In this document: positions 14,578 to 63,015 of the stretch, one piece after another
How the letters are laid out: each line of letters begins with the position of its first letter
Position numbering within the stretch: position 1 is the first letter of the stretch
From: Octopus vulgaris
Lineage: Eukaryota
Length of the DNA stretch: 64,000 bases
Direction of reading: 5' to 3'
Assembly (NCBI GenBank): GCA_951406725.2
Contig: OX597815.1
Span: forward strand, 150,226,001 to 150,290,000
Made by a program: the position numbers and the translations under genes
Notes under the pieces: model-generated
What the model was told of the DNA's origin: nothing
What the model saw: only the letters and a program-made list of their open reading frames with translations
The model's database searches: none

Positions 14578-14630
<53 letters not shown>

Positions 14631-14655
14631 TATGGGACAATAATTTGGTTGCCAT

Positions 14656-14715
14656 AGTAAAACTCCGAGTTTCGGATGTCGGGGCGGAAATCTGCTCCGG
14701 CATCTCGTCAGTTAT
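14656..14715 (-). ncRNA. Type I hammerhead ribozyme motif, intact core
   Basis: ataa-CTGACGA-gatgccggagcagatttccgccccgacatcc-GAAA-ctcggag-TT-ttac: long pairing stem II, stem III ctc/gag, GUU cleavage triplet. Confidence 0.75.
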
Positions 14716-14738
14716 CAAGGCGATCAAAAAATGCCTTC

Positions 14739-14797
14739 ACAACCGACGAGATACCGGAGCAGATTTCCACCCCGACATCTGAAACTCGGAGTTTTAT
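14739..14797 (+). ncRNA. Hammerhead motif, second copy (core CCGACGA, U4 to C)
   Basis: acaa-CCGACGA-gataccggagc...cccgacatct-GAAA-ctcggag-TT-ttat. Confidence 0.6.
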
Positions 14798-14901
14798 TAT
14801 GGCAACCAAATAATTGTCACATATTATATTACAGATAAATTCCTCTATTTCCATAATATCTGGGTTACATTGATTCATTTATCATACCATTCCTACTGAT
14901 A

Positions 14902-14951
<50 letters not shown>

Positions 14952-28395: not shown

Positions 28396-28991
28396 CGTAT
28401 ATGTATATATGATATATATTTACATATATATATGAATATCATGTGTATATATTTATATACATACATATGTGGATGGGCGAGGGAAGGTGAGGAACCTCAT
28501 TCGTATGTTTTGAATTCGTCGGTACTGGACGTTGAATATGATCTGTCTGATACTGTTTTGAATTGGATAGGTATGTCCAATTTTTTCCAGTGCTCTCAAA
28601 TTTAACATCGTGGAATCCTATGCTGAAGAGGAAAATGTTTGGGTGAAGTATGATTTTTACATTTTTCATACCGATTTAATTCCGAAACGCGTCCATAGGT
28701 TATCAAATACCGAGTGAATTTCGTTATTTTTCCTATATGTCTGCGTGGGTTATTTTGAGTATTTTGTTTTGTCTGAATGTCTCTTCTTATAGTAGAAGAA
28801 ATAGCTAAGATTCTTTGGCTGCTATTTCTGAACTTCGGTATGTGGTAAAGCAAATCTTTACTGAACCCTAATTATAAATATACTCGTAATTATAAAATAT
28901 TGTTTAAGTTTACCGAAAAATGGTCCTTTTTCATGCCGATTTCTACTTGATGGAATTATTAATTGCCCGTTAATTAATTAAGTTTATCCTT

Positions 28992-29039
<48 letters not shown>

Positions 29040-32044: not shown

Positions 32045-32648
32045 GGTTTCAAATTTTGTTTCAAGTGCAACCATCTTTGTGGGGAGGGGATGAGTCGGCC
32101 GCATTCACTCCAGTGTTCAACTGGTATTTATTTTATCGAACCCAATGTGATGAAAGGCTTCGTCGACCTTCCCGGAATTTGAACTCACCCCTAAATATTT
32201 TGCCTGGCTAGCTAACGATTCTTTTCTACTCTAAGCACAAGGCCCGAAATTTTAGGAGAGGTGGCCAGTCGTTAAGATCGACCTTAGTACGCAACTGGCA
32301 CTTGACTTATCGAACGCAAAATGATGAAAGGCAAAGTCGACTTCGGTGGAATTTGAACTCAGAACGTAAAGACAGGCGAAATACCTCTAAGCAATTCGCC
32401 CGAATTTTTAGCGTTTCTGCCAGCTCGCCGCCTTAAATATTATTTTGTACTCTAAGCACAAGGCCCGAAACTTTTGGGGAAGGGGCCAGTCGGTTAGTTC
32501 AACTCCAGTACGCAATTGGTACTAAATTTATCGACCCCGAAGGGATGGAAAGCAAAGTCAACCTCGGCAGAATTTGAACATAAAGGCAGACGCAATACCC
32601 CTAAGCATTTCACCCGGCGTACTAACGTTCTACCAGCTCGCCACCTTC
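32045..32648 (-). mobile_element. Three tandem SINE family A copies
   Basis: Units at about 32045-32220, 32221-32434 and 32445-32648. Confidence 0.9.
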
Positions 32649-36329: not shown

Positions 36330-39250
36330 CACGCACAACACTCGTGCAACACGCTTCCATCTCTTTTGAAACGTAGACTCCGACAGACATCTCTTCTCCA
36401 ACTACAGCTTCCTTTTCAAAGGAAAAGAAAAAAATGATCGTAAATTGTGGCAAGAGATAAAGTTGCCTGACTGAATTCCTTTTATCCTAGTTTTCCATAC
36501 TGCCTCTTTCGCTATTGCTACAACGTGAGAAAACAATTCTTACCTTCGTTCGTTAAAACTCCCGGTGGGTCAATTATTATAATTGACTCAGTGGACAGCT
36601 ATACTCTTCCTTCGCTGGACAATAGGTGTTCAGCATAAGCCCACATTTCAGTTATCTCCAGACATTGAACAATAGCGTGAAGGACGGTTTCCCTGTGTCT
36701 CTCCCCACTGCATCTTGGACAGGTCAGCGACTGACGCTTACCATGTCTTGCGAGCTTATCCCAAACGAGCATTGCCAGGTTTAGGACTTTTGGAAGTTAT
36801 CTAACGTCCTCAACCCGAATGTACGGTGAAACCGGCTGTCCAGTTGAATACACCCGAGACCCAGAGTCGCCCCCAGACCATCGTCGCATTCAGGCTCTAC
36901 CAACCCACTATATACAATCCGTGTTGAACCCCCACCGCTGGCATTTCCCGAGCGCTAGAATAGCAAGTGGGATTTACGGCACTCTTTATGCCATGCACTC
37001 GACCTCGGTCTACGAGAACACCAGGCTTCCTGTTCGCAAAAACTTTTGAACTCGGGGAACATATGTTTGGTCTGCGGAGACCACACCCGTTCACTGTCCA
37101 GGAGAATCCAGAGGTGCCCCAACCTCAACGCATGTCTGCGCATCATTAACCAAGGCAACCCTAAACCTCCCTTTAAAGGCTTTTCACAGCAGACAGAGCG
37201 TTTCACAAGTGGTGACCTGTCCTTCCACAAAAAAAAACGTAAGAGCTGTCTCTCCAACCTGATAAACCACGAATCCAGACTGGGCACGACGGTCAGTGGT
37301 AGGTAATGACCAATGCAATAAACACATTGACCACCTCCGCCCTCCCTTTCAGGGATAGCCACCGCAAAGACCAGGTCTTGACTACTGCAGCCACCCTGCT
37401 CAATAACTCCGTCCACTTCTTCTCTATTTGGAGGCCTGGTCCAAACCAAACTGCCAGCAACTTAACCGGTCCCTCCGTACAGCGCCTATCAATGCTGTCT
37501 GAAGGCATCGACTTGCTAATCCAGGTGCCAAGCTGCAACCCGACCGACTTTTCCCGGTTAATCTTTGCTCCTGGCACCTTCCCGTAAACCTCAATAGCCT
37601 TACTCACTTCACGTAGGCGTGCTACCGAGGTTACGCTAATAGTGATATCATCCACGTAAGCCGGAGCAAACTCCTCTAGATCTTATTTTCTCGGGATGAC
37701 ACTCAACCTTCAAAGTAGGGTCTCGAGAGCCATCACATGCAAAATTGGTGAGAGCGGATATTCTTGACGAACCGTGCGTCTGATGCAGAACGGCTTCGAA
37801 AGGAAACCGTCCACCCAAACTATCGAGTGAAAGTAGTGGTACAACAGTAGATGCCCGAAGAAGTCTGGCATGCATTTATACAGCTCGTACGGAAGAGCAT
37901 CAGGTCCCGGCGACTTACCCGCTTTACAGTCGACCAAAGCCTCCATCACCTCCACAGGCGTGATTGGCCCTTCGCAAGACTCCGCATCCGACCTCGAGAG
38001 GCACGGCAATCCGGCAAGAAAGTCCTAGAGGGCTCTTCCACCACCAGGACCACCGTCCCTCCCGAACAGCTGGGCGAAGTACTCCCGAAAGGCCTCACAC
38101 ATTTTCTCGGGTTCATTTATCAAGATACCATTTTGATTCGTCAAAGATCGAATAGTGGAAATATTTCCTTGCCGAGCTTCCACCACTCGGGCCCATCCCA
38201 CGGCCTTGATTCCTTCACTTACCATCGCACGTAACTTAGCTCTGGCAATACCTCTCAGGTGTTGGGCTTCAAGATGCTGGTTTAGCTCCAGTCTTTTCAC
38301 CCTCGCTTATTCCGCATTACCAGTCCTCCAGGCTTCTTCTAGTTCCTTAACTAGACCATCTCCTATTCTACGTCCCTTCTTGGCTAAATTTATGCTAAAA
38401 CTAATAGACTCATATTTGATGGCTCTTTTTAGGACGTACCACCATTTGTTATTAATGAAGGTACCTGTTAATGCCCTCTGTATTAACATCTTGATTCGCT
38501 TTCTGTACTCGTTAATCGCCAAAAGGGACGTATTAAGTTTCCAGTAGCCAGATCCCTGACTATGCAACGTATCTACCATCTTGTGGTCACTGTAGCTGAC
38601 TAGAAAAAACTGTAAACACTGCTATGGACTTATCTGTTTCTAGATATCCTATCTAGATATCTTCTGGAAGACCCGTCACTATTTGACCACGTCCACTGTG
38701 GAGTGTTCGGTTGTTCCAACCTATATGGATCTGCTAGCTGAAATTGACTTAGCAGAACCTGTAACCCCGGGTTACATTTTCTGTTCATGTTAGAGCCAAC
38801 ACAATCTGTGTGTGCTTCTCTTGTTGTGTTAAAGTCTCCTAACAATACTAGCGAATGCGACGTGGTTAGGAACTTGCCCGGGTCACGAAAATATTCACTT
38901 TGTAGGCCCATAATGTTGGGTGCATAAATAGCGACTAGCCTGATTATCTTGCCACAATCGAATGTCAGGTCAAGAACGACTAGCATGCCTTCTGGGTCAG
39001 AAAAACAAACTTTTTCTAGGCTACACGGTTTCTTTTTAGTAGGACCAACACCACCACCTCCCACGACTCGGAGAAACATATTTCTCGTAGCCGCTCAGGA
39101 GGGGGAGCAGATCTCTTGGCCCCATCACCCGGGTTTCTATTGCAACAATTACATCCAAATTTCTCGACCTGATGTTATTTAGGAAGCCCCCTTACTTCCA
39201 AATTGACATCAGGAAACGAACATTTATACAACCAATGTGAATAGACGTGA
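36330..39250 (-). pseudogene. LINE ORF2: APE endonuclease plus reverse transcriptase, frameshifted
   Basis: IGCINVR, AIYAPN, LLGDFN, WTW...YLDRI, GSGYWKLNTSLL, GKSPGPDALPYELYK, VRQEYPLSP, (Y)VDD, GAKINREKS, LSLKGRAEVVN, KGGLGLP. Confidence 0.92.
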
Positions 39251-40498: not shown

Positions 40499-40680
40499 CT
40501 TGCCGGCAATTAATGTTTTCCCCCACAGGGGAAAACCACAGATAGCGTTCGAAAGAAAACTATACTACAATTGTTTACACAATAAGTCCAACAATAAGCG
40601 CAACAAGAGATATAACAATTAACAGAAACTTATGAACACACTCCAATCATAAATTTTCAATAACAGATGTACGAAATACC

Positions 40681-40913
40681 TATTTCTTTACTACCCACTA
40701 GGGGCTAAACACAGAGAGGACAAATAAGGACAGACAAACCGATTAAGTCGATTATATCGACCCCAGTGCATAACTGGTACTTATTTAATCGACCCCGAAA
40801 GGATGAAAGGCAAAGTCGACCTCGACGAAATTTGAAGTCAGAACGTAGCGGCAGACGAAATACCGCTAAGCATCTCGTCCGTTGTGCTAACGTTTCTGCC
40901 AGCTCGCCGCCTC
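40681..40913 (-). mobile_element. SINE family A (tail-B variant) inserted into another SINE head, 15-bp TSD
   Basis: Flanks gatgtacgaaatacc (40666-40680) and gacgtacgaaatgcc (40914-40928). Confidence 0.85.
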
Positions 40914-49942: not shown

Positions 49943-50241
49943 CAGCAGTAGTATTGAATGCGACAAGATGGCAGAGCCATTAGCATGGAGCACAAAATGT
50001 CTTTACGTTTTTGATTCCAGTTCTGTCGAACTCAACTTTAACTGTCATACTTTCAGAATCGATGAAAAAAAGTACAAATTGAACCCTGGGATCGATGTAA
50101 TCGGCCAGCACCCTCCTCCAAAAGTTCAGTCCTTTTAGCTATTGAAGAAAGTATTACTATGTTTTACTGCAGTCACGTTAAAGGTGAGACAGTTTTCCAT
50201 CTGCATCTGCATACAACTTCTGTGTTGAATGAGGCAGCTGT

Positions 50242-50671
50242 AAGGCGGCGAGCTGGCAGAAACGTTACCAGGCCGGGCGAAATGCTTTGCGGTATTTCGT
50301 CTGTCTTTGCGTTCTGAGTTCAAATTCTGTTGATGTCGACTTTACCTTTCATCCTTTCGGGGTCGATTAAATAAGTACCAGTTACGCACTGAGGTCGATA
50401 TAATCGACTTAATCCGTTTGTCTGTCCTTGTTTGTACCCTCTGTGTGTGGCCCCTTGTGGGCAGTAAATAAACAAGTAACGGTAGTACGCCGGGCGAAAT
50501 GCTTTGCGGTATTTCGTCTGCCTTTACATTCTGAGTTCAAATTTTGCTGAGGTCGACTTTGCCTTTCATCCTTTCGGGGTCGATAAATTAAGTACCAGTT
50601 GCATACTAAGGTCGATCTAATCGACTGGTCCCCTCCCCTAAAATGTTGGTCCTTGTGCTTAGAGTAGAGAA
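50242..50671 (+). mobile_element. Dimeric SINE (tail-B monomer plus 5'-truncated tail-A monomer) with perfect 15-bp TSD
   Basis: gaatgaggcagctgt at 50227-50241 and 50672-50686. Confidence 0.9.
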
Positions 50672-51754
50672 GAATGAGGCAGCTGTTTTCTAGCTTGTAC
50701 TTCCAGACCCATCGCTTTTTCTGCCGCATAAATAATCAGGAGTGGTTCAGGGACTGTCTTCCAGTTTTTGTGGTTATGAAAATTACGCCTCCATTAAACT
50801 CGAATTCTTTTTGTGTTTAGAACCTCTACATAATGATCCATGTAAGTGGCAGCTTATAAAAAATTAATGTCGTGACTAATTTGCTTAACCTTAACCCTCG
50901 GATTTCGCTGTTTCGAGTCCCGAGACACAAGTTGACAAGTTGATTACTTGGCCTGTTGCTCGTCCTCTATCTGTTGTACCTCGTTGTCATTTCTGACGAC
51001 CATACACACAGAGGCGTGTAATACCTGTTTTGTTTTGTTGTCTTTTGTTTTTTTTAATTGAAATAATATTCACCTTTAGTGTCGACCACAGTGACCTGTA
51101 ATCGTTGCCTCGATCATGCAAGAGAAGCTCAAACCCTGCTGAGAAAGATAGTTGTGATTCGACATATTCTTTTTCAGTAATAGCAAAATCCGGAAGGAGG
51201 ACAATATTCCTTGTCATTGAAATATTCTCTCATACAGTTCTCTGTTTTATTCGTTCGCTCACATTCTACTGCTCTATCTTACTATCAACGCTTAAAATAT
51301 AATCATTGTGTCTTCACACATTAGCGTTTGTTTATCTGTGTATAAGTGTGTATGTATATGTGCATGTGTATAAGAGTGTGTTTTTGTGTAATGCGTATGT
51401 GTGTGGGTGTGTGCGTGTGTGTGTATACTCTTAGTGTTGTCAATAGATTGTTTTTTTTTGTTCCACTATGTCAATATTTTCTTCTTACTGAATGTCAGAT
51501 GACAAAATATTTTTGTCTCTTTTTTCCAATTTCATTTTGCTTTCTTTTTTTTCACAAGTTTTTGTCTGTTGAAAGTGCTTCTTGCTGTTGTTATTGTCAT
51601 TGTTCTTTGTTCGTATGCTTCTTGTTGTTGTTGCATTCCGTTTATGACAATATTTTTACGTATCAGCGAGAAGAAATCTCAAGTCCTCCAACTAAGCGGC
51701 TTCCTTCAAAAATAAAGACTAGTTTTGAGAAAATTCTTCGTGCCTATTTTTTTT

Positions 51755-52552
51755 TTCTTTTTACTCTTGGCACAAGGACCAAAATTCTGGGGGAGGGAGC
51801 AAGTCGATTAGATCAACCCCAGCACGCCACTGGTTCTTAATTTATCGATCCTGAAAGGATTAAAGGCAAAGTCGATCTCGGCGGAATTTGAGCTCAAAGA
51901 ATTAAGACAGACGAAAGTTTCTATTTCTGACCACAAGGGGTTAAACATAGAAGGGACAGACAAGGACAGACAAAGGGATTAAGTGGATTACATCGACCCC
52001 AGTGCGTAACTGGTACTTAATTTATCGACCCCGAAATGATGAAAAGCACAGTCGACCTCGGCGTAATTTGAACTCAAACCGTAAAGACAGACAAAATACC
52101 GCTAAGAATTTCGCTCGGCGTGCTAACGTTTCTGCTAGCTCGCCGCCTTAGGAATTCTTTTCGAATCTAGGCTCAAGGGCCGAAATTTTGGGGGAGAGCA
52201 TCAATCGATTAGATCGACCCCAGTACGCAACTGGTACTTAATTTATAGACCCCGAAAGGATGAAAAGCAAACACGACCTCGACGGAATTTCAACTCAGAA
52301 CGTAGCGACAGATGAAATACCTATTTCTTTACTACCCACAAGGGGCTAAACACAGAGGGGACAAACAAGGACAGACAAACGGATTAAGTCGATTATATTG
52401 ACCCCACTACGCAACTGGTACTTAATTTACAGATCCCGAAAGAATGAAAAGTAAACTCGACCTCGGCGGAATTTGAACTCAGAACGTAGCGGCAGACGAA
52501 ATAGCGCTAAATATTTCGCCCGGTGTGCTAACGTTTCTGCCAGCTCTCTGCC
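51755..52552 (-). mobile_element. Two tandem SINE dimers (four monomers)
   Basis: Alternating tail-A and tail-B units; junctions gacgaaagtttctatttc (about 51915) and gatgaaatacc|tatttc (about 52321). Confidence 0.85.
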
Positions 52553-53139
52553 TTCCTCGTTTCTATTTTTAATTCTAAAACATTTCGAATTGGAAAAGAA
52601 ACACCCATCGCTCCTCCAATAATCATTATAAATTGTTTCTAACATAAGCATTAACCCTAAAATTTGTGAAGACGTGGCGATTAATCGATTAAATAAAACC
52701 TAGTTCTTGTATGGCCCATTATTTTATCAACCACGGGGAGACAAAAGCCACAGCTTATTTCGGCTAACACAGAACGTAAAGAGCCAGAACGAATTATTCA
52801 AGACAGCGTTCCGACTTTTCACCAATTCTGCTATCGTCCTACAAGAACCTCAAATTAATAATTAGTAACTGTAATGACTTGAGTTGGTAGAATCGATAGA
52901 ACGGTTAGCGAGGTTTTGAATTTTACGTCAAGAGTTCAAATCCCACCAAGATAAACTTCGTTTTTATAACTTTTAGGGGTTCGATAAAATAACTACCTGT
53001 TGATTACCGGAGCCAATGTAATCGACTTGCACTCCGCTGCCGAAATTGCTGACCAAAACTGAAACGCTTTTGAAATTAAATGGATTGAAACTGTTAAAGT
53101 GATGGGACGCCACGATGAATGATATTTATCTATTATCAT

Positions 53140-58000: not shown

Positions 58001-58439
58001 CCAATTAGCGAAGCCATGTACATTCTCCCAAATCATAAACGCTTGGAAATGGCTGCTATGATTTGGTTCATACAGCATGAATAAATTCTCATATGATTTT
58101 TGACACATACATTAAAGAGATGCGACATCATGCATGCATTTGGTCTCTTTAAGTTGATGAGAATCCACTTTGCAATAATCAATAGTGAAGGGAAAAATTC
58201 CTGCTTTCCTCTAATTAACATTTTATAAAGAGAATGAGAAGCAGAATTATAAATTTATACAATATGCTGCTTAAAAATCATACCTTACCAAGTATTACGA
58301 GTTACCGATGATGAATACTGGATCATTCGTCAAGAAAGAAACGGGTGATATGTTCCTCTCAACTATTACTATATTATCTTTAAAAAAACATAAAGTAAAG
58401 CGACTTTTAGTAATATAGTCCATGATATATCGTAAAGCT

Positions 58440-58652
58440 AAGGCAGCGAGCTGGCAGAAGCGTTACCACGACGGACAAAATTCTTAGCCGCATTTCTTCT
58501 GTCTTTATGTTCTGAGTTCAAATTCCGCCGAGGTCTACTTTGCTTTTCATCCTTTCGGGATCGGTAAATTAAATATCAGTTGCGTACTGCGGTCGAGCTA
58601 ATCGACTGGACCCCTCCCCCAACAATTCGGGCCTTGCGCCTAGAGTAGAAAA
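58440..58652 (+). mobile_element. SINE family A (tail-A) monomer with 14-bp TSD
   Basis: gatatatcgtaaag (58424) and gatatatcgtcaag (58653). Confidence 0.9.
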
Positions 58653-58814
58653 GATATATCGTCAAGAAATTAAAGAAGAAATCTATTATTGAAACACGTT
58701 GATCATTGGCCTTCTTGATCACAACTGACCTGACACCAAACAACTACCATACTTCTCCATAGGCAACTAGGCGGGGTACGGAATCTGTTGGGAAGGTGTG
58801 TTGTGAATAGCAGT

Positions 58815-60000: not shown

Positions 60001-61007
60001 GTCTTCTCTTGCACAATTCTACTAATATTGTTGCTTCTCGAGCTTAGAGAGATGTACAACCTCCCAATGTATCTATCCCTCTTTCTCTTCGCAACCGTAT
60101 TGCATCCAAATTTGTTTTCTATCTGCTAACCATTTTGCTCATGACACTACCAGATTTCACAGACATTGTCAAAGCTTCTTCTAAATGCATTATACGGAAA
60201 ACATCACCTTCAATACAATGTCATTTACAACATCAAACTATACAAATCCGAAGAGGACAAACGTTAACATTTCGGATTGAATTTCAAAGAAGAATGTTAA
60301 TTGAGAGCAGAGATAAAGGTCCATATTATTGCCATATCTATAAACCAAAATACCATTTCTACTGAATAAAAGAAACGACAATTCTCAAAGTTTGGACTCA
60401 AGGGATTTTACTCGTAATTTATCGAATGACCTTATTCTTGTAGACAAATATACCAAATATGTACTTTCAAATCGCTGTGATTTCGTATTTTTCTTTTAGA
60501 CTGTATTGTAATATTCGTTCCAAATTTTGGCACAAGGTCAATAATTTTGGTGGAGAAGGGTTAACTCGATTACTTCAACCCCAGTACAGTTCTATATTTA
60601 AGAGGTAAGGAATTATGTACATTATTTAGATTATTTACATTATTTACTTTTGACGTTTATTTCTCCTCATCTTGTTTGTTGTTAACACAATGTTTTGACT
60701 GCTACTTCTGCTATTGTGGTGCCTTGTTGGTACACTTCATTTCAATTATATCTATATTATTATATACTTACAATAATTATTACCTATCTGAATTTTCCAT
60801 GCAGGCCACTAGATATAATCGTATGTTAAATAATCGTCTTATCCATTTTTATATAAAATATGTATATTCCCTCCGTATCATCATGTTTACTGCGGTGATA
60901 TTTTGACCATATGGCACATGGCGTAAGACGGGCAAATGAATTAGTCTGGTATATACGTGCACATATATGTATGTATACGTGCTCATATGTAAGTATTCGT
61001 ATGCTGT

Positions 61008-61834
61008 ATATATATATATATAAACGGCAGTTTGTCTGTCTGTGTGTCTGTCAGGTTGTACCCTCACCCTGACCACGGCTTTCAACCGATTCTGATGAAA
61101 CTTGACACACACATAGCCCAATGTCATAATTCAAAACTAACGCAGCGAAAATTTTGAAAAGATCCCCCAGTTCTGAAAAAAATTGATAAATTCGACATGA
61201 GGTCGAGAATCTAAGCTTCTTATATGCAACACATTTTCTGTTGTAGTTTTCGCAACTTGCAATCGACTTTCACCAAACTCATGGTGAAGCTTAATGTTAC
61301 CATAAGAAACTTAATTCTGACGTTAGTTTTCCATGCAATACCTTACCATCAGAAAAAATAGATAAAATCATGCCATTTTGGGAAATCGCGTTCAAATTCA
61401 AGATGACATATTTTCGACAATATCTTTCACAAATTGGCAGGATTTTTTTTTATTCACAGCGAGCATCATGTCTGCTCCAAGGAGCTATATGACCCTTTTT
61501 ATTCCAATAGGATACTTTATTACTGGAAAAAATCGGTTAATTAAATCATATGTGGCACACATAGCAAACCGATTTGTGTATTAAACACAAACCACAGACT
61601 GTCTAGGGGAAGCAACTCGACCTTTTTAACTCTCTTGGGAGGCGCAATGATTTTTATGTTTTCGCCCAAAGGGACAGATAGGACCATCGTATACACAGAA
61701 GTATTCGAGTGAAGAGAAGACATTGCAACCTACACATACGCCTTCGTTCCATAGGGGGAAAGGACTAGATTGGGATTAGTCGTTGCCTACTAGGTGTTCT
61801 TACATACCCGGACAACGCCGGGCTATGCTGCTAG
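61008..61834 (+). mobile_element. Non-autonomous Helitron
   Basis: 5' tatatatataaacggcagtttgtctgtc; helicase C-terminal remnant TIVYTEVFE* near 61684-61713; 3' hairpin cccgg-acaacg-ccggg followed by CTAG|T. Confidence 0.8.
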
Positions 61835-61846
61835 TATATATATATC

Positions 61847-62424
61847 AGGCAAGGAAGAAAATGGTGAAGAGATTCAATTGACAAACATCAGCAAGATCAA
61901 TTTATTGAATTCGTAGGAATAAATGAATAAATAAATGGATACAATTTACACTCTTGCAGCTTTTTCTACTTTAGAAGGCCAGTATGCCAAAGATGATATA
62001 TCATACAAAAACTGAACCCCAAAGCTTCATCAGAGAGTCACTAAGTCGAACATGGTAAGAAGTAATAAAGTCCAAGGTTATATCCAGTCTTACTAACTCT
62101 TGGATGAAGCTTTGGTTTCAATTTCTGTATGACATGTCATCTTTAGCATACTGGACCCCCAAAGTCGAAACAGCTGTAAGAGTGGAGTTGTATTTATTTA
62201 TTTATTTTTCCTATGATTATAATAAATAAATCTTACTGATGTTTGTCAATTGAATCCCTTCTTTCTTGCCTTATGAATTCTGGATAAACGTTTGTTTCCC
62301 TCCACTTACACATATCATTCCATTGCACTATTGCTTTACAATAGTAAGTTTTTGGATGTAAATAGGAATCTCTCCAGTAGTATATTGATATTTATTATCC
62401 CTTAGTTGGTTACCTAACCTCTAA

Positions 62425-62428
<4 letters not shown>
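61847..62428. mobile_element. ORF-less palindromic element of two head-to-head HHR-bearing arms, between (TA)n tracts
   Basis: Arms 61847-62046 and 62088-62271; HHRs at 61950-62038 (minus) and 62096-62183 (plus); unpaired extension to (TA)n at about 62430. Confidence 0.85.
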
Positions 62429-62485
<57 letters not shown>

Positions 62486-62527
62486 ATCTGTGTGTGTGTG
62501 TGTTTAATTATCTACTAATTTTGCTGT

Positions 62528-62585
62528 ACTTCCACTGATGAAGGCAAAGTATTTTATCACCAGCCTGAAATCCTCGATATGAAGT
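62528..62585 (+). ncRNA. Type I hammerhead ribozyme motif, intact core
   Basis: acttcca-CTGATGA-aggc...gcct-GAAA-tc-ctc-ga-TA-tgaagt: all three stems can pair; lies in about 300 bp between two microsatellites. Confidence 0.75.
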
Positions 62586-62805
62586 TAACCATTCAATTTT
62601 TGCTAATTTCTGTGTTCTTTTATATTATCATTCGTGCTATATGAATACATGATGTGGTTCTATAGTCAGTTTTGACTGCAATTTCTGGAATGGTGGCGCT
62701 GCTTCGGAACCCTTAATTATAATTATATTTATATTATTATATACCTATAGTAATTATTAAACTACACGGAATTTTCCACTTAATATGGTCGTATTCTAAA
62801 CCCTT

Positions 62806-62864
<59 letters not shown>

Positions 62865-63015
62865 TGTGTGTATGTATGTATATATATATATGTATATATG
62901 AACATGTATCTATATATATATGTATATATGTACATATATATATATATATATGTATATATATGTGTGTGTGTATATATATATATATGTATGTATATATATA
63001 TATATATGTATGTAC
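62806..63015. repeat. Compound (TA)n/(TG)n microsatellite
   Basis: Direct inspection. Confidence 0.95.

Follow-up and report, generated by a model that had tools for sequence, protein, structure and literature searches.

What kind of element places two copies of a hammerhead ribozyme motif head to head at positions 61846-62427 of the 64,000-nt stretch of DNA analysed here (the window), and how was that arrangement made? The first-pass annotation of this locus gave no element class; the architecture is one that has been published for Penelope-like elements (PLEs). We propose that the locus is very probably a decayed head-to-head pair of two 5'-truncated PLE pseudo-LTR fragments, created by one insertion into a TA microsatellite in which both nicked strands likely served as primers. 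It is likely that this is a new family of an already described kind, the architecture itself being in print in substance.

The segment is an imperfect palindrome with one side longer than the other (Table 1). Inverted arms of about 190 bp had been claimed, and local alignment of 61851-62045 (minus strand) with 62089-62272 (plus strand) bears this out, with 155 of 183 aligned columns identical and a score of 182, where the maximum among 300 shuffles was 31. Global alignment extends the arms to approximately 61846 and 62277, with 31 of 189 columns differing (about 84% alike, K2P 0.19), corresponding to a decay of about 0.09 (about 9%) per arm if the arms were identical at insertion. Contigs from three public sequencing runs (X1, X3 and X4, with two organism labels) cross the palindrome centre, differing from it at 1, 0 and 1 letters respectively, so the junction is real and an assembly artefact is ruled out. 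The 43-nt spacer that holds the junction has no hairpin (DNA fold of -0.3 to -1.5 kcal/mol). Read-through RNA of the whole palindrome is predicted by folding to form a hairpin with 159 inter-arm pairs (-222 kcal/mol), and such a hairpin would bury the ribozyme.

Table 1. Features of the palindromic locus and its flanks, in window positions.
Feature	Positions	Strand	Description	Basis
Helitron-like 3' end (flank, outside the element)	61807-61834	+	hairpin 61807-61822; CTAG 61831-61834, then T	sequence, depth
Left (TA)n flank	61835-61845	.	11 nt only; directly after the Helitron-like 3' end	
Left arm	61846-62045	-	inverted 5'-truncated copy; ends at the family's main 3' end, without tail	alignments; family depth peaks beside the end and drops beyond it
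Left type I hammerhead motif	61950-62038	-	stem I 62034-62038 with 61950-61954; core 62027-62033; stem II 61967-62026; stem III and UH 61955-61966	
Spacer	62046-62088	.	43 nt; holds the inversion junction; low copy; no hairpin	
Right arm	62089-62277	+	5'-truncated copy in forward orientation	alignments
Right type I hammerhead motif	62096-62183	+	stem I 62096-62100 with 62179-62183; core 62101-62107; stem II 62108-62166; GAAA, stem III and UA 62167-62178	
3' extension	62278-62427	+	one-sided, about 150 nt; family sequence in far fewer copies than the arms	contigs, depth profile
Right flank	62428-62503	.	(AT)30(TG)7 microsatellite	

The two motifs carry the complementary lesions first described for them. 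The left motif has an intact CTGATGA core and a damaged stem III and UH (AAGCTG-CA after GAAA); in the right motif the core is damaged (TGGATGA) and GAAA-CAGCTG-TA is intact, with cleavage predicted between 62178 and 62179. Stem I has 5 bp in both arms (ACTCT/AGAGT). The insert between core and GAAA, which represents stem II, measures 60 nt in the left arm and 59 nt in the right, in agreement with the length of about 60 nt originally given; its description as unusual must be tempered, however, since a second motif in the window, at 28617-28699, has a stem II of 54 nt, so that this element is not alone in having a long one. Stem III is palindromic, the sequence ACAGCTGT at 62170-62177 being its own reverse complement, and this self-complementarity predicts that cleavage in the parent family would depend on dimers. 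Dimer dependence has been reported for PLE hammerheads (PMC4209133; reviewed in PMC6765202). At this locus both hammerhead copies are predicted to be dead. The term "double hammerhead", under which the locus was first described, has no functional meaning in cis, since the motifs lie on opposite strands and any transcript carries one sense motif together with its antisense, so that they cannot dimerise within one transcript.

A hammerhead descriptor matched the window three times (both arms and 28623) against 0.33 matches per shuffled window (30 shuffles), this descriptor having been composed after the element was seen and having missed the motifs at 14630 and 62530; an earlier strict scan of the window had matched only 28623 and one poor site. 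The two ends of stem II form 9.2 and 11.8 expected pairs with one another, values that 7 and 0 of 300 shuffles attained, in a 14-nt end window that was picked after the fact. Stem II as a whole shows no exceptional stability (59 and 28 of 300 shuffles folded equally well), and free folding of the arms gave neither a hammerhead nor unusual stability (z of +0.86 and +1.09). A two-sequence consensus fold retained stem I and not stem II, and the minimum-energy fold of the family model was not the hammerhead. Full sequences for covariation in helices I-III numbered only two, and the family change 61973 A>G, seen in three runs, restores a G-C pair in stem II. No hammerhead family was present among the 113 Rfam matches in the window or the 18 in 61800-62700; the matches in both searches were microsatellite-driven miRNA matches only. 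Since Rfam misses such motifs here, hammerhead families with a long stem II may be under-annotated. Among metagenomes, a strict-pattern scan for relatives found no match. A looser scan found 23 loci (approximately 16 distinct) with both boxes, none having a 5-bp stem I or any likeness beyond the pattern, and these were rejected as chance. Since 0 of these 23 chance loci has a 5-bp stem I, its presence in both arms counts in favour of the hammerhead.

Each arm has a perfect 12-nt palindrome at the apex of its stem II (62129-62140 and 61993-62004). A paired double change distinguishes the two palindromes, with C-G in one arm and T-A in the other, and they are reduced to 10 nt when the family letters are applied. 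The apex may be a possible second dimer contact, or chance.

Family copies were seen in contigs from four public runs (X1, X3, X4 and X5, representing three organism labels and three studies), which were placed on 61780-62430 at 80% likeness; contig depth is not equivalent to copy number, and in X5 no contig crossed the palindrome centre. In all four runs depth over the core was greater on the left arm (left/right ratios of 15.9, 26.7, 56.2 and 132.4) and depth over GAAA and stem III was greater on the right (right/left ratios of 29.4, 31.0 and 26.7, with 727 against 0 in X1). Each of the type I boxes (CUGANGA, GAAA, UH) is thus intact in one of the arms, with the family depth on that arm in each of the four runs, and helix I is kept in both arms. 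Since family depth gathers on whichever arm is intact at each box, the lesions look private to their arms, and the family likely keeps both the CUGAUGA and the GAAA-CAGCUG-UA boxes, as judged indirectly from contig depth. The other-letter evidence for the family consensus comes from the 40 rows listed of 97.

It had been claimed that the consensus of the arms rebuilds a complete hammerhead. This stands for the two boxes, which depth on the intact arm makes likely for the family, but completeness also depends on the C at 62166 in the right arm. The base before GAAA is A in the left arm and in 79-87% of family depth (80, 87, 79 and 85%). Since A and not C precedes GAAA, the G10.1-C11.1 pair is absent in most family depth, and it can form in the right arm only, with a bulge. 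This pair is highly conserved in PLE hammerheads (PMC4209133), and its absence here lowers the case for a canonical PLE hammerhead but not the case for a PLE-like architecture. A family variant in X1, X3 and X4 has 40 extra letters within stem II at 62007-62011, showing stem II length to be variable in the family.

Relative to the locus contig, depth summed over the arms was 11-51x in the bin at the 5' end and 46-197x in that at the 3' end, and depth in the extension was 2-35x. X1 and X4 showed a clear rise toward the 3' end and X3 a mild one, and X5 was flat; the summed depth profile is that of dispersed copies which are 5'-truncated and anchored at the 3' end. At the centre bin (62088-62109) depth was 39, 57.5, 4.5 and 23, or about one contig in each of the four runs. 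Since the centre is at approximately single-copy depth and the junctions of other copies differ, the palindrome itself is not the mobile unit. This bears directly on the possibility of a MITE or fold-back DNA transposon, in which long terminal inverted repeats with a captured hammerhead-like piece would move as a unit into TA sites, as the long inverted arms, short centre and TA flanks might suggest. Such an origin is extremely improbable and largely refuted, the whole palindrome including its centre not being the repeated unit: the arms are many-fold deeper than the centre in all four runs, the junctions vary among copies, the two ends are not symmetric, and the extension belongs to the family.

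At least six joints, among the 15 listed of 24, cross from the left arm into the right at breakpoints of their own, and a seventh appears in a separate table of the same contig analysis. X3 alone has four other head-to-head joints besides the intact centre, and the 62040-62117 joint corresponds in depth to a contig that differs by 17 letters, which places at least some of the joints at other loci. Taken singly they are weak, since five of the six skip joints, placed at 80% likeness, have a short side of fewer than 30 letters; 62046-62047 could also mark where the alignment gives out and not a breakpoint. The joint 61879-62208 would leave no hammerhead in either arm. Eight "opposite strand" joints were set aside, being taken as arm-switching of ordinary copies; the skip 61894-62006, a deletion inside one arm, is not head-to-head; and record 13 of X3, which has a head-to-head look, was left out of the count as a possible allele. 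The family therefore has the inverted, 5'-truncated head-to-head copies with variable breakpoints expected of a PLE, with the reservation that most of the joints have short sides.

The window contains a further element of this design at 14628-14905 (the 14630 element). As had been stated, the two share polarity, the 14630 cores lying at 14705-14711 (minus strand) and 14743-14749 (plus strand), and they share no sequence similarity, their best alignment score being 23 where shuffles gave a mean of 21 and a maximum of 33. The one-sided extension was likewise confirmed, with about 150 nt on the right of the present element and 80 nt in the 14630 element. The arms of the latter are 86% alike and therefore younger-looking, and it has an odd 7-nt stem III region with UU at the cleavage position.

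These recurrences also weigh on a different history, that of a single inserted fragment which was later duplicated in inverted orientation through an error of DNA repair or replication that had no connection with integration. The surroundings are AT-rich and microsatellite-rich, and the arms have at least one non-majority letter in common, as such an accident would allow. We nevertheless consider it very unlikely, since the same polarity is found in other family copies and in the unrelated 14630 element, and the left arm ends at the family's main 3' end and not at a random place.

That the extension is family sequence is indicated by diverged contigs covering 62272-62411 (X5 record 31) and 62318-62411 (X1 record 8), and by a joint at 61843/62276 that connects arm to extension in X3 and X4. 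With the family letters applied, no open ORF start was found in the extension. Its last 55 nt (62374-62427) are at 24-213x depth and are common to a more abundant repeat, which has the same 3' end beside TA; in X3 a divergent upstream loose-end consensus occurs at 62374-62427.

The claim of TA-repeat flanks was correct in that TA adjoins both ends, but the left run is short and directly follows the Helitron-like end. Positions no more than 3 nt from the edge of an array make up 0.6% of the window, a figure to be read as one locus whose left TA is common to the Helitron-like end. The left TA is also reached by two diverged family contigs (X1 record 1 and X5 record 24). The hairpin, CTAG and T of the neighbouring end match the description of Helitron 3' ends (PMC8969392), and 61812 is A>G in nearly all of its depth, which makes the hairpin perfect. 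Depth over this end was about 700,000 in X1, compared with 39 for the locus contig, and was extreme in all four runs. Since many Helitron-like copies elsewhere also run into TA, the left flank is not independent evidence of the target. The Helitron-like non-autonomous element itself is approximately 825 bp (61010-61834) and lies between TA runs, its 5' side being near the TA run at 61007-61022.

The assignment to PLEs rests on several published features. In PMC8557442 an inverted 5'-truncated copy is described at the 5' end, with a 30-40-bp tail that is often at one end only, and a (TA)n bias is reported for Naiad and Neptune elements; in PMC3846280 head-to-head is the most frequent PLE arrangement; and in PMC4209133 opposite-strand hammerhead pairs 100-700 bp apart are considered to be probably truncated PLEs. 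Compared with the EN+ PLEs (Penelope/Poseidon, Neptune, Nematis and Hydra; PMC8557442, PMC3846280), the locus is alike in its head-to-head inverted copy with 3' ends outward, its one-arm extension, its arms of about 200 bp, its (TA)n flanks and its type I hammerhead within the repeat. It is unlike them in having no ORF in the insertion and no palindrome at the junction, and its extension of about 150 nt, the end of which overlaps another abundant repeat, exceeds the 30-40 in print. With the PLE hammerheads of Cervera and de la Pena (2014; PMC4209133) it shares the type I form, a 5-bp helix I, an extra base after core position 9, a palindromic helix III/loop 3 that predicts dimers, and the occurrence of nearby opposite-strand pairs, mostly away from full elements. 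It differs from them in most family depth lacking the G10.1-C11.1 pair and in its helix II region of 59-60 nt, where they have a stem II of 6-8 bp. A long helix II did not appear in the passages compared, PMC4209133 giving 6-8 bp and PMC13725137 describing viral helices of 6 bp, although supplementary alignments may hold such cases. Poseidon PAc of the green anole (Frangieh et al. 2024, PMC11167929) has a short tail and an ORF whose start lies within stem II, whereas no ORF start is evident here.

Among 49 short frames around the hammerhead elements of the window, no Pfam match was found below E 0.03, and so none to a PLE reverse transcriptase or GIY-YIG domain, as would be expected since the fragment would be pseudo-LTR only. 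Three Pfam matches at E 0.04-0.09 all fell below the cut-off and were discarded. The missing ORF in the local frames can also be read as a sign of a non-autonomous hammerhead family, SINE-like or retrozyme-like, whose exact pseudo-LTR is carried by no autonomous PLE and of which the palindrome is a by-product. Depth falls 2-9 fold directly upstream of stem I (62044), as if many copies begin near the ribozyme, although this drop may merely mark where the spacer of this copy stops resembling the family. PLE pseudo-LTRs are the reported source of animal retrozymes (10.64898/2026.07.22.740005), and the non-LTR retrozymes resemble the locus in being non-coding, low in GC, PLE-related and provided with a type I hammerhead (PMC7229834; 10.64898/2026.07.22.740005). 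They are, however, direct tandem repeats of 150-450 bp (PMC7229834), whereas the locus is an inverted pair: a direct-repeat search of 60800-63000 found no tandem period above 20. The tandem retrozyme form thus fails at the locus, which has no direct units of 150-450 bp with a hammerhead, and we regard a non-autonomous family in the wider sense as unlikely.

Within the PLE reading, the arms themselves suggest how they were joined. Their 3' ends face outward into TA, the left ending at the family's main end and the right bearing the rarer extension. In the green anole, a PLE protein cuts and extends both strands and prefers AT-rich DNA; cDNA starts at two internal sites bounding the tail, and RNA that has not been cleaved by the hammerhead is used (PMC11167929). 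By analogy, a PLE protein would nick the two strands of a (TA)n target. The free end of the bottom strand would prime cDNA at the distal start site, giving the right arm with its tail, and the top-strand end would prime at the proximal site, giving the left arm without one. Both cDNAs would pass through the uncleaved hammerhead and halt just upstream, and repair would join the two truncated cDNAs head to head. The hammerhead would then simply be carried along with the pseudo-LTR, and its cleavage is predicted to require another RNA copy through the self-complementary ACAGCUGU. Given a PLE origin, such two-strand priming is somewhat favoured over the other routes together, and two start sites for reverse transcription directly explain the different outer 3' ends of the arms. 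The parts of PMC11167929 considered here make no claim that two-strand priming produces head-to-head copies, and that step is our own inference.

A shared mechanism that makes this architecture repeatedly had been suggested earlier, with fold-back priming as an example. The recurrence is supported by the left-arm-to-right-arm joints described above, but the fold-back step is unsupported, the junction having no hairpin. A PLE-derived palindrome for which an antisense template primed itself by folding back, or for which synthesis switched template on nascent cDNA, is on the whole rather unlikely. Self-priming was proposed for rotifer PLEs because palindromes occur at their inverted junctions and head-to-head copies predominate (PMC3846280), and a single template for both arms is hinted at by the T that both carry at 61993/62140, where another letter occurs in 61-90% of depth. 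The spacer without a hairpin speaks against it, though a small one may have been lost as each arm decayed by about 9%, and so do the different ends of the arms, which two start sites explain directly. If a PLE origin is granted, antisense self-priming is a good deal less probable than two-strand priming, and all remaining routes together are slightly less probable again.

A bolder version of the PLE reading, which we hold to be doubtful, is that of an undescribed PLE family with an active ribozyme variant. Its hammerhead would have a 60-nt stem II that tolerates a 40-nt insert, a palindromic apex as second dimer contact and closure by an A-A mismatch, and its reverse transcription would start at sites about 150 nt apart.

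Other elements of the window were noted in passing. The motif at 28617-28699 (plus strand) is a hammerhead without lesion by descriptor, with a 6-bp stem I, CUGAAGA, the 54-nt stem II and GAAA-CGCG-UC; it is a single arm, with a TA array approximately 300 nt downstream at 28995. We take it as a third PLE-like family, unrelated to the other two, and as the candidate best suited to a cleavage assay. Between the TA/TG arrays at 62503 and 62808, positions 62529-62587 (plus strand) hold a hammerhead-like motif, seen in sequence only, with CUGAUGA, an AGGC/GCCU stem II, GAAA, UA and a stem I that contains an additional base. Its downstream portion (62669-62778) is related to 60692-60799 with 77% likeness. 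A broken LINE at 36955-39094 (minus strand), with endonuclease (PF03372, E 1e-4) and reverse transcriptase (PF00078, E 3e-4) matches that are both below the Pfam cut-offs, is not a PLE. A dispersed repeat of about 230 bp, which we take to be SINE-like, is present in many copies on both strands (32218-32435, 40677-40912, 50241-50675, 51758-52554 and 58438-58654) and accounts for most long inverted pairs in the window.

By itself the locus is a dead repeat fragment, and its value is as a marker. The origin of head-to-head inversions in PLEs is an unsolved question according to PMC8557442 and PMC3846280. Several unrelated families that invert in (TA)n within one genome could yield hundreds of junctions with which to test models of this process. 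If the PLE family with an active ribozyme variant proved to be true, its many junctions could decide between two-strand priming and antisense self-priming from genome data alone.
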